From NCBI GenBank assembly GCA_000165345.1, contig CM000429.1, forward strand, positions 1 to 64,000: a DNA stretch of 64,000 nucleotides. Direction: 5' to 3'. The notes under the pieces were generated by a model. That model worked only from the letters and a program-made list of their open reading frames with translations, did not search any database and was not told where the DNA came from. A program made the position numbers and the translations under genes. Positions 35,730 through 39,481 of this stretch are shown here, one piece after another. Positions within the stretch are counted from its first letter, which is position 1, and every line of letters starts with the position of its first letter.

Positions 35730-38700
35730 CCTATAATGATTAACCATTATTAAATATGATTTCTTATCGTGAATGTGAGTTCAGGTATTTTACATTACTG
35801 ATGATTATATATTAAAATGAATGAAAATCCAACAAGATTCAACTATGAATGGTACAAAGACTTTTTTGAAAGATTTAAATGCTGTATTCAAAGAATCAAT
35901 TCTTCCGATAATAATGTAAATATTATTCAAAGAATCTATAGCAAGAATGAACAATCAGGTGAACATTTTTGTTAATTTCAAATTTTAACATTCGAAAAAT
36001 CAATTGAAGTCTTGAGCCAAATTTGATATTTGACTCGATTTTTTTTTGATTAAATTTAAAATATATTTTGGTTATCAATTTGAAAATTTTCAAAATAGAT
36101 AAACCGGCTCAAGTGTTTAAACACTATGATAAATTATAATATTAAGTTAATAAAGCAATCACTTTAATAAAAAAAAAGCTATACGGATAAATTCTTTAAT
36201 TAAGAATCTCCAAATAGTGTTAATTTATAACCAGAAATATGATATTAAGATATTTCGTTTTTCAGAAGATTGATATGAAATCATATTCGTATTCAAACTC
36301 AAAAGCATCAAAAGTCTAATAAAATTTGACTTCATTATGTAAATAAACTAATAGATAATCATCTTATGATTCATAAATTTTTTTTTATCACTTGTAAATA
36401 TAATATTTTTATTTCAAGCCCATTATTTTTTTATTTTTTAATATCTTATCTATATGCTTCATTAACGTTCATTTCACTTTAAAACGCTAATAAAGGCGAT
36501 TTTTTTTGGAATTAAAGTTGTAGGGATAAAAAAATCTGTTAATATGGTGTAATAAATTAGTTAAATTCTCGACAGAAAATAATAAAACTATTATTGTGAA
36601 ATCTAGTAGATTAGTTTTTTTATTGTTGAGAATCATGAATGAAATGCTCTATAAAAGAGATTTAAAATCTTAAATCTGTAGTTTATATTGTCTTAGATAC
36701 ATTCATAATATTCTTAATACTTGGTTCCATTTGATAAGATATTCCTTATTCATTATTTAATATATTAGACTATTTTTCATCCGTTACAGATCAAATATTG
36801 GTGTCAAGATAATAGATGATACCTTAAAAATTACATACATTAAGCCACAATATCAAAGCCAAGCTTAATATTAAGTTTTATTAGAAAGAAACCCAAGAGA
36901 ACATGGAATAACTCTAATCAATAATAGAAGAAAAATATTTATTTTCAATGTTGGTAGAAAACAAACTTTAAAAAAGTTATACGATAAAAAAAAAGTGGAA
37001 ACCACCATTTATAAGATTAACAAACTTTTTCAATTTAATGAAATAAAGGTTAGCTTGAAATCTATTTATAAAAAGAGAACTATTAAGGAATATTTCAAAA
37101 ATTTAATGGATGATATATATTTACATTATAATCAAAAATTAAACAAGTAATGTAATTTTATTATTTTTTTACTCACAAAAGTTATTTAAATTATTATGAA
37201 AAACATTAAACTGGCAAAATTTTACTTGAAGCCTTTTTTAAATTTGAAAGCAAAAATTAATTTAAGAAAACTTCACAATGAAAGTCAAATATTTTTGACT
37301 TACAAAAAAAATTAGCGTTTTAAACAATAGAGGAAGCATTCATTAAAAAAGAAAATGATGAGCCTTGCAAAGTTGAAAAAAGATATTCCGATTAATTAAT
37401 TTTGATAGAATTCTAAAATTAAAAATATTCACAAGAAAAAGTCGAAGGAATTGCCAAAAAATAAGTTTTAAGGAGCTTAGATATGTTTAATAGATTTTAT
37501 CACTTGTGCAAATGAATTTATTCAAAAATACAAAAAAGATATAAAAGGTTTCGCCCAAAATATTTAGCTAAAACAAAAACCTAATATAAAACAAAAATAC
37601 TAACAAATATAGCAATGGAAATGAAGTAGAAACACAGAAAAATGCAAATATAATATCTCAAACATTATCCAGAATAAAAATATCAACTTCAGGTCTAGGG
37701 TTGACATTATTTATGTTTCTATACTAAAAAACATGAAAATACCAAAAAAATTACCAATAATTAAAGAAAAATAAACAAAAGATAAATATATTAGAAAATT
37801 AATTCAAGAGCAAATTGAGGGATTCAAACCTGGAAAAAAAAGGAATACTTCATATTGAATAGATCAAAACAGAAACTTGCAAGAAGCTGAATTTGAACTA
37901 GAACCTGCCTTTGCTAATGAAAATATTAAACATTAAGTTATTATTGGGTATTTTTCTAAATAAATTTGTGTTTTAAAGAATTTAACAGAAATATTAATCC
38001 AGAGTCTTGAATTGTTGAAAGTTTTCGGAAACATACTACTCTGAATTTTTGGAAGATTTTGATTCAAGAAAAGTTACAAAAATAAATCATTTAAGCAAAA
38101 AAAGAAAATGTTAAAACAAAAAATTAAACAATTTATAGCTTTTCAGAGTTACTCTTGGTGAATTTAATGAGAAAAATTTTTCAGAAATATTTAAATTAAC
38201 AAGACCAAAACGCAGAATAGATCAAAACTTCACTTGATATGAAGGAAAGCCTATCTAGAGAAAATATTTAATCAAAGATTTAATAAAAATCGAATTAAAC
38301 ACAATATTGTATTAAAGAAGAAACAAATGGCTACTCAAAATAAATGGAGCTAACAATTCAAAAAAAAATTTAGTGTAATTAAATTTTTTAATATTAAATT
38401 GTCGATTTTTAATGTATTACAGCATTAAAAACCTTATTGCTAGTTCTTTTAGCTCTGAAAACCCGAATAAAAGAATTAAAATTAATAGTCAAGTAGTAAT
38501 TTTGCAAAATATAAGTGATTAAAATATTGTAAAATTAATTAAAAAAAATGATGAAAATTTCTGTTTAAATTATTTGAATAGAATACGTAACAATGGAATA
38601 AACCATTTCAAATTAAATAATTTAAAACAAATTAAGGATAAATACGAAATTAATTCAAAAAAATTAACATAAAATAATAGTGTGATGAGTGAAATGAAGT

Positions 38701-39481
38701 TGTAATTATTTTCTTAGTGAATTCAAAAACTAAACCAAAGTGAAAACACTTTATTTCAATATTGTGCAGAATAACAAGGAAAATAGTCCATGAACATCCA
38801 AAAACTTGATTAATAGATGCAGGAAATAAGATAGCCTATTTACTTGATGTAAATAGTAATTTATTGATTAATTTATTAAAGCAACTATAATATTGACATA
38901 AAATTTTTAAACGAAATAAGGAAAGTTTAACTATTAATTAACTTAAATAGAGAACTAATTATGAGCAAAATTTATGTATATCAATCAATGACCTAAAATA
39001 ATAACACTTTTTACCAGTGGAAAATATTGCTCCATAATTGTAATTGATAAGTCAATATTCATGACCCTAATAAGAAATACTAAACGACAAAATAAAATTA
39101 TTAAAGTAAGAAAGCAACAATGATCCAATATATTAATTAACATCTGCATTATCGGGAATAAAACAATGATAATAACATCGGAAATATCAATTTTTGCAAC
39201 TAAAAATCTAATTCCAAAAAAAACTAATTAGTGTTTAAAAATGAATGGTTAATATTTGAGAAAGTTGTACTACTACGGAAAATTCACCAGAAATAAATTA
39301 TCTAAACTTAATGAAACTATTTTGAAGAAAGTATTTGATATATTACAATTATAATTATGAAAATTAACCTTTAACTAGATTATTCGCGTATAGCGCGTAG
39401 ATAAAAGAAAAATAATTTATAGGTCAAGTTATACTAGAGATCTAAATGCTTATGTAATACAAATCTAAAATTTTATTAAAA

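Follow-up and report, generated by a model that had tools for sequence, protein, structure and literature searches.

Subtelomeric variant families such as var, rif, and stevor in Plasmodium evolve by birth and death, and var loci carry regulatory introns and belong to distinct upstream classes. The SKSR genes of Cryptosporidium are likewise secreted, polymorphic, and subtelomeric, with pseudogenes and a copy number that varies among species and among isolates of different hosts. Unlike var, however, the SKSR array is small, and we found nothing in it that resembles var regulatory introns or upstream classes, nor any link between its spacers and silencing or switching. Gain and loss of genes of this family at this chromosome end have been described before (PMC8767354, PMC10438818, PMC12092579). 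In their accounts of gene content, the Cryptosporidium felis genome paper gives cgd1_120 and cgd1_140 as losses in syntenic regions that were well assembled, and the Cryptosporidium canis genome paper gives progressive SKSR losses and copy-number differences (PMC8767354/PMC10438818). One member, SKSR1 (cgd1_140), is a validated virulence determinant (PMC12092579). Where these papers treat SKSR gain and loss, they count genes and leave the remains at empty slots without description; the loss of cgd1_140 is listed in the C. felis account with no remnant described. Here, we compare the left subtelomere of Cryptosporidium parvum chromosome 1, which holds the SKSR virulence-gene cluster, in a 64,000-nucleotide (nt) window (contig CM000429.1, positions 1 to 64,000), and ask what fills two long spacers in it. 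S1 (35730-39481) runs from the stop codon of cgd1_140 (array member D) to the ATG of cgd1_150 (member E), and S2 (45742-49636) runs from the stop codon of cgd1_160 (member F) to the ATG of the non-SKSR gene cgd1_170 (gene G); the original prediction had placed both exactly. We consider it fairly probable that the bulk of S1 and S2 is unconstrained by-product DNA of gene turnover in the family, with no large hidden functional element. New here is that the empty slots are followed across species as neutral spacers of 1.7 to 7.9 kb and that a C. felis pseudogene and an extra C. canis paralogue are placed at them.

Syntenic loci were retrieved from Cryptosporidium hominis (L002), chipmunk genotype I (L003), a Cryptosporidium sp. 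(SRR18693150, Logan assembly; L004), Cryptosporidium meleagridis (L005), Cryptosporidium ubiquitum (L006 and L011), C. canis (L007), Cryptosporidium ryanae (L009), and C. felis (L012). A family member at the syntenic position was present for S2 only, intact in C. canis and decayed in C. felis, while no gene was found between D and E, the S1 slot, in any species examined. In C. canis, the orthologue of cgd1_160 (L007, 688-3492) is followed after 1.65 kb by an SKSR gene on the plus strand (5146-8322) and after a further 1.68 kb by the orthologue of cgd1_170. This gene, here called X, is intact, encodes a protein of 1058 amino acids (aa) of the SKSR family, and sits where C. parvum has S2. Its closest relatives are the orthologues of cgd1_150, at 76 to 88 bits and only 24 to 35% identity. 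In C. felis, the orthologue of cgd1_130 (member C) is followed by 7.3 kb without a plus-strand open reading frame (ORF) of at least 100 aa and then by the orthologue of cgd1_170. A plus-strand fragment within this spacer (L012, 6285-6602) matched a profile hidden Markov model (HMM) of the family, built from D, E, F, the extra C. canis gene, and their orthologues, with a score of 27.6 bits, where the null did not exceed 3.8, and of 32.5 bits when the fragment was excised. It carries five in-frame stops, is closest to the E subfamily, and still shows motifs of the family, among them SITLECFGL and RESEINIS. This is a dead SKSR gene within an ORF-free spacer. HMM coordinates projected onto the contig would put the former gene at about 5380-8280, ending about 1.7 kb before the cgd1_170 orthologue, as X does in C. 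canis. The recognizable fragment itself may extend to about position 7223.

Two further species bear on the history of the S2 slot. A tblastn search of C. ubiquitum S2 with the X protein returned 31.2 bits, exceeding all 400 shuffles, in two collinear high-scoring segment pairs in the same frame, one of which spans the family motif KK.A.N.P...ST.ELF...VF. Both lie in the middle of the spacer, the expected place of a lost gene between two flanks of about 1.65 kb. C. ryanae (L009, 5058-10000) has no SKSR array, and the interval from its orthologue of the gene at 21326-24442 to its orthologue of cgd1_170 measures 2.0 kb, whereas in C. parvum this interval spans 25 kb and contains six SKSR genes. 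Since C. ryanae retains 2.0 kb before cgd1_170 without any array, the long upstream region of this gene either predates the array or is independent of it, and the array itself is a lineage-restricted block.

These arrangements suggest that S2 is a composite of three parts. It would begin with the 3′ flank of cgd1_160 and continue with the slot of an E-like SKSR paralogue, which C. canis has intact and C. felis has as a pseudogene and which may have been deleted or have decayed beyond recognition in the group of C. parvum, C. hominis, C. meleagridis, chipmunk genotype I, and C. ubiquitum. It would end with an ancestrally long upstream region of cgd1_170 (about 1.7 to 2 kb), in which a tandem array and the proximal promoter would be the sole strongly constrained sequence. 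The gene seen in C. canis and C. felis would then be ancestral and would have been lost in the C. parvum lineage. We give about an even chance to the proposal that S2 arose in this way, through loss of an E-like SKSR gene and fusion of its flanks to the old, long, array-bearing upstream region of cgd1_170. Set side by side, the gap in C. parvum, the live gene in C. canis, and the dead gene in C. felis offer a concrete picture of turnover in a virulence family. S1 is the upstream region of cgd1_150 and changes quickly in length among species; a lost paralogue and plain expansion are both possible origins.

The rate at which the spacers evolve points in the same direction. Both are collinear with their counterparts in the closer species and are present in five or six other species. 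Permissive blastn searches among the spacers of different species, and of S1 against S2, gave AT-rich noise, and only long collinear alignments were used. Identity to C. hominis is 0.943 for S1 and 0.957 for S2, and identity to chipmunk genotype I is 0.668 and 0.708, respectively. At four-fold degenerate sites of D, E, F, and G, the corresponding values are 0.93 to 0.965 and 0.67 to 0.69. Because spacer identity equals that of four-fold degenerate sites, the bulk of S1 and S2 drifts at the neutral rate. Whole coding sequences (CDSs) are 0.73 to 0.87 identical to those of chipmunk genotype I, and the short intergenic regions E-F and G-H are 0.79 to 0.81 identical; by these comparisons, the spacer bulk is freer to drift than ordinary promoters of this region. 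The original prediction had named equally long spacers at syntenic positions in all species as an argument for plain spacer DNA, but lengths range from 1.7 to 7.9 kb. S1 measures 3.75 kb in C. parvum, 3.76 kb in C. hominis, 7.9 kb in chipmunk genotype I, 3.3 kb in C. ubiquitum, and 1.74 kb in the Cryptosporidium sp. of L004, and S2 measures 3.87 kb in C. hominis, 4.88 kb in chipmunk genotype I, 3.05 kb in C. meleagridis, and 4.49 kb in C. ubiquitum. Neither a plus-strand ORF of at least 100 aa nor an annotated gene was found in the spacer counterparts of C. hominis, chipmunk genotype I, L004, C. meleagridis, or C. ubiquitum. We conclude that the spacers are ordinary in kind, being neutral non-coding DNA in a family that gains and loses members. 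In chipmunk S1 (L003, 5178-9193), about 4 kb of extra sequence falls between the equivalents of window positions 38339 and 38708; it showed no plus-strand ORF of at least 60 aa, no SKSR similarity, and no match in the other fetched loci.

Decay is also ongoing among the living SKSR genes. The SKSR1 orthologue of C. hominis UdeA01 (L002, 3378-6239) aligns end to end in one frame with an in-frame stop (269 and 695 aa), and a frameshift of SKSR1 in IIdA19G1 isolates has been published (PMC12092579). On a contig of a C. parvum isolate (L010, ERR14760746), a 4-nt deletion (AAAC) at window positions 40248-40251 divides cgd1_150 into ORFs of 260 and 727 aa; this is possibly a natural loss-of-function allele, and an assembly error is also possible. 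The C. hominis UdeA01 orthologue is annotated as two genes, of 192 and 653 aa. In L004, the SKSR gene upstream of the cgd1_150 orthologue (1-773) shifts frame at position 477, where two gene calls overlap, as the result of either a frameshift or an assembly error, and its C terminus is more like E-type than D-type C termini.

Remnants of the family were sought in the C. parvum spacers themselves, since the original prediction had raised the possibility that these are decayed family members and had suggested tblastn with low-complexity masking off as the check. With SEG off, the nine window proteins (array members A to F plus genes G to I) and, later, their orthologues were searched with or without composition correction. 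The best E value was about 0.04, at the level of noise in both spacers, and the orthologues likewise returned noise alone. The family HMM reached at best 2.5 bits on the C. parvum spacers, with a shuffle null of up to 2.9. This full-length HMM was applied to 12 spacers, translated in six frames and compared with shuffle nulls, and found no match in C. parvum, C. hominis, chipmunk genotype I, or C. meleagridis. Block HMMs of the KKRADE...ELFG motif and of the C-terminal domain stayed at or below the 95th percentile of the null across spacers. Majority consensus sequences of S1 and S2, drawn from four or five species as an approximation to the ancestor, also failed to match the HMM. The idea of decayed family members thus found no footing in C. 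parvum itself, where all searches were null, but it is upheld by synteny for S2; S1 has no such evidence.

The spacers are unusual in length, as had been proposed, but not in composition. Both are more than twice as long as the next longest gap in the window and about seven times the published mean intergenic distance in the C. parvum genome, 504 bp (PMC7840661). The contrast had been drawn too sharply, however, in giving other gaps as 15 to 600 bp: these range from 15 to 1741 bp, the three longest being 1741, 1046, and 983 bp, and the other gaps within the SKSR array measure 578, 1741, 440, 1046, and 470 bp. Nor are the spacers distinctively AT-rich, with a GC content of 0.223 (S1) and 0.202 (S2) compared to 0.19 to 0.28 in nearly all other intergenic segments. 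The A-richness likened to that of the coding regions is clear in S1 (AT skew of +0.141, concentrated in 37230-39481) and only weak in S2 (+0.065). The absence of ORFs of at least 60 codons holds for S1, whose longest ORF is 56 aa, but not for S2, which has ORFs of 65 and 66 aa when ATG, GTG, and TTG starts are allowed and the cutoff is set at 60 aa. Both of these lie on the minus strand and within the tandem repeat. The longest stop-free runs are 91 codons in S1 and 74 codons in S2, with medians of 75 and 69 in composition-matched shuffles; since they lie within the shuffle range, the ORF content is what would be expected of random non-coding DNA of the same composition.

Within S1, the tract that adjoins cgd1_150 (37230-39481) is purine rich on the plus strand (purine content of 0.56 to 0.62, AT skew of 0.11 to 0.27), with A exceeding T. 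It recurs in C. hominis, chipmunk genotype I, C. ubiquitum, and the short spacer of L004. The skew of S1 as a whole equals that of third codon positions in D and E (0.144 and 0.133) and is unlike that of housekeeping genes. This tract may have been inherited from SKSR-like coding DNA, or it may reflect plus-strand transcription, as a long leader of cgd1_150 or a long non-coding RNA (lncRNA); a rough estimate of decay time fits both.

Several observations weigh against reading the spacers as the leavings of gene turnover. None of the methods recovered an SKSR remnant from S1 or S2 of C. parvum, such that a dead-gene origin is inferred from other species alone. X could be a highly diverged E that has swapped places with F in C. 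canis rather than an additional gene. The C. ubiquitum match is marginal, given the many combinations of query and spacer and a block-HMM score no higher than the null's 95th percentile. That five species have kept the purine skew beside cgd1_150 is not predicted by drift alone and may be explained by transcription. Finally, keeping at least 3 kb in five species of a very compact genome would need either a low deletion rate or a constraint on length.

The most distinctive sequence in either spacer is a tandem array upstream of cgd1_170 (48697-49043, plus strand). Its four units each span about 87 nt, and a related half-site recurs at intervals of roughly 44 nt; in C. parvum, seven sites lie at −930 to −670 from cgd1_170. 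An alignment of 20 units gives a core of about 38 nt, ATGTGGATTACCGGCATGCAATTAATTACGTGTAAAAAAA. The pattern CCGG(N0-2)YATGYAA occurs five times in the 64-kb window, always on the plus strand and always inside the array. For the stricter CCGGYATGYAA, 3 matches were counted where 0.01 would be expected, and a 23-mer of the unit occurs 4 times, against 0. Similarly oriented arrays are placed at −600 to −1200 relative to the cgd1_170 orthologues of C. hominis, C. meleagridis, chipmunk genotype I (88 bp × 5.2), C. ubiquitum, and C. canis (96 bp × 4.4, 94% matches), which with C. parvum makes six species, while C. felis has a single site upstream of this gene and C. ryanae has none. In all six species, every match to CCGG(N0-2)YATGYAA within the locus is on the plus strand and between −600 and −1170. 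A looser form of the pattern is absent from the minus strand upstream of cgd1_170 in C. parvum, C. hominis, and C. meleagridis, as well as chipmunk genotype I, and has a few matches there in C. canis, C. ubiquitum, and C. felis. RNAalifold predicted 0 base pairs on the 20 repeat units, which indicates conservation in primary sequence, as for protein-binding DNA. The array is conserved above the neutral level, and its position and orientation relative to cgd1_170 are fixed across species, as in a generic cis-regulatory array. From this pattern we infer that the array is cis-regulatory, and it is probably a cluster of protein-binding sites upstream of cgd1_170. Units are more alike within than between species, which suggests homogenization or repeated re-expansion. 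An array with a core of about 38 nt in six species is a well-defined candidate cis element in an organism in which few promoters have been dissected.

The closest described motif is that of the ApiAP2 factor AP2_1 (BGCATGCAH/TGCATGCA), sites for which occur upstream of C. parvum genes (PMC3734150, PMC4117751), and a study of lncRNAs lists ANTTGCATGYA as an upstream motif (PMC7840661). Several array units contain TGCATGCAA or GCATGCAA and to that extent resemble AP2_1 sites. However, the conserved part of the array is CCGG(N0-2)YATGYAA within the core, and each of the four C. canis units reads CCGGTATGTAA and lacks GCATGC at that point. The GCATGC core is found in some units of C. parvum, C. 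hominis, and C. meleagridis, as well as chipmunk genotype I, while all C. canis units and many chipmunk units have GTATGT instead. Furthermore, AP2_1 sites are usually single or few and near the start site, in contrast to the 4 to 9 sites at −600 to −1200 seen here. We rejected the array as an AP2_1 (TGCATGCA) cluster, since the GCATGC core is not kept across orthologous sites.

Other conserved islands were identified in 30-nt windows of a four- or five-species alignment. Conservation in either spacer is highest in the putative proximal promoter or 5′ untranslated region (UTR) of cgd1_170 (49389-49616, plus strand), made up of blocks at 49389-49438, 49484-49562, and 49587-49616, with as much as 90% identity across four species in the second. 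In mid-S2, an island at 47652-47690 has a core, AGATGAATTAAAATAAA, that is identical in C. parvum, C. hominis, and C. meleagridis, as well as chipmunk genotype I, and differs by 1 nt in C. ubiquitum. Near the other end of S2, an island at 46181-46246, about 440 to 505 nt 3′ of the cgd1_160 stop codon, has 70 to 77% of positions in its 30-nt windows identical in C. parvum, C. meleagridis, chipmunk genotype I, and C. ubiquitum and may belong to the 3′ UTR or the polyadenylation region of cgd1_160. S1 has a sole island (37031-37084), where C. parvum, chipmunk genotype I, and C. ubiquitum share 70% or more of a 30-nt window, against a background of 0.29. The suggestion that the spacers hold regulatory or structural DNA is borne out in S2 by the tandem array and the proximal promoter, a small part of that spacer, and not by the bulk. 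We also considered the mid-S2 island, at 47655, as a dead signal-peptide exon, given its likeness to the 5′ end of cgd1_150, and set this aside (P of about 0.06 in a shuffle test of local alignments, with no support from other paralogues).

Two functional accounts of the full spacers deserve weight, although we regard each as unlikely. One is that S1 and S2 are lncRNA loci or very long 5′ or 3′ UTRs on the plus strand that regulate their SKSR neighbors or cgd1_170. Known intergenic lncRNAs of C. parvum are likewise AT-rich elements of a compact genome: Li et al. reported 396 lncRNAs, of which 33 are intergenic, and described the long intergenic RNAs (lincRNAs) as AT-rich (PMC7840661), and the CpBGF annotation has 766 lncRNAs, with 88.6% of the genome within annotated genes (PMC12179316). 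Both spacers lack coding potential, their open runs being unconserved; the plus-strand purine skew in the 2.2 kb next to cgd1_150 matches the third-position skew of D and E and recurs in five species, and the isolated mid-spacer islands could be promoters or polyadenylation sites. In contrast to those lncRNAs, no catalogue entry could be tied to S1 or S2. Thirteen-mers from eight positions (four per spacer, both strands) were absent from the searched portion of the FASTA file of the 396 lncRNAs, in which a control 13-mer was present, and the tables of the same study have no lincRNA entry of the CPATCC_00392x5 type, although the mapping of identifiers to genes is uncertain (PMC7840661). The neutral rate and frequent indels argue against lncRNA loci, as does the absence of any Rfam match in either spacer at the gathering threshold or at an E value of ≤1; an ARAGORN scan of the spacers found no tRNA. 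The other account, to which we give the same low weight, would make the whole length of each spacer an extended cis-regulatory or chromatin-insulating region for stage-specific expression of cgd1_150 and cgd1_170. Each spacer does lie directly upstream of a gene, and S2 holds a deeply conserved tandem array. The region upstream of cgd1_170 is long in every species examined (1.7 to 4.9 kb), including C. ryanae with no array of SKSR genes, and long spacers persist despite a mean intergenic distance of 504 bp. However, apart from the islands and the array, which make up about 0.6 kb, the spacers match four-fold degenerate sites in identity; S1, at 1.74 to 7.9 kb, is held in neither length nor sequence; and cgd1_160 works with 470 bp upstream. 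It is conceivable, and in our estimate more doubtful still, that purine tract, islands, and array together form a long-range non-coding control system for the SKSR cluster and cgd1_170, combining spacer transcripts with a multi-site binding array. By a loose and speculative analogy to the non-coding elements of Plasmodium var genes, such a system would set stage-specific or variegated expression of SKSR genes and cgd1_170.

Two other explanations strike us as very improbable. Unannotated protein-coding genes, whether small ORFs or genes with many introns, might have been suspected from the 91-codon stop-free run at 36875-37147, which overlaps the sole island of S1. This run is within the shuffle expectation and is frameshifted in C. 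hominis and chipmunk genotype I, and we rejected it as a small gene. Moreover, none of five NCBI-annotated species has an annotated gene in the counterparts of S1 and S2, an exact look-up of the 66-aa S2 ORF as a product in the assembly collection returned no record, and substitution is at neutral levels; annotators should not expect hidden genes in either spacer. The spacers might instead serve the chromosome structurally, for example as a replication origin or as an AT-rich centromere like those of Plasmodium. Both are AT-rich, free of genes, and 3 to 4 kb long, one of them contains a tandem repeat, and a search of the full-text literature turned up no paper mapping centromeres in C. parvum. 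However, there are two such blocks 6 kb apart rather than one per chromosome, and their GC content of 0.20 to 0.22 is that of ordinary intergenic DNA (0.19 to 0.28), whereas a regional centromere of the Plasmodium type is a single locus with AT far above that of other intergenic DNA. In addition, spacer length varies by species, C. canis has a gene in the S2 slot, and the sequence lacks conservation. Unconstrained DNA left by gene turnover is the reading we prefer to all of these for the bulk of both spacers.

The genes that border the spacers are all on the plus strand. The 2892-bp CDS of cgd1_140 (32838-35729) agrees with the published SKSR1 (PMC12092579). cgd1_150 (39482-42469) is 100% identical to a C. 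parvum protein recorded as "Secreted Protein (SKSR gene family)," and cgd1_160 (42940-45741), also of the SKSR family, has orthologues in C. hominis, chipmunk genotype I, C. ubiquitum, C. canis, and C. meleagridis. cgd1_170 (49637-50494) is found throughout the genus, with orthologues from C. meleagridis cmbei_100170 (96%) to Cryptosporidium muris (39%). The window sequence has no Ns, and its segment from 29482 to 52469 is 99.987% identical to the long-read IOWA-ATCC assembly of chromosome 1 (CP044422.1, 824 to 847 kb, reversed), so the spacers are not assembly artefacts. The one difference over these 23 kb is a 3-nt (AAA) indel at window position 40120, in an A-run of cgd1_150, which gives a product of 995 aa versus 996 aa.

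Some minor observations concern the neighborhood of the array. In C. meleagridis (L005, 276-6950), the deposited model is a multi-exon gene of 1888 aa, of which only the cgd1_160 orthologue, in the last 2.8 kb or so, was confirmed; the model looks like an annotation artefact. At the very start of the window, positions 1-743 on the minus strand hold an 18S rRNA fragment (Rfam SSU_rRNA_eukarya, 642 bits, model positions 1-737). It is followed by a third long gene-poor stretch of about 2.9 kb (744-3681), with the first gene at 3682. The sole ORF of at least 100 aa in this stretch is a GTG-start ORF of 137 aa (1917-2330), and GC skew is strongly negative at 1001-3000.

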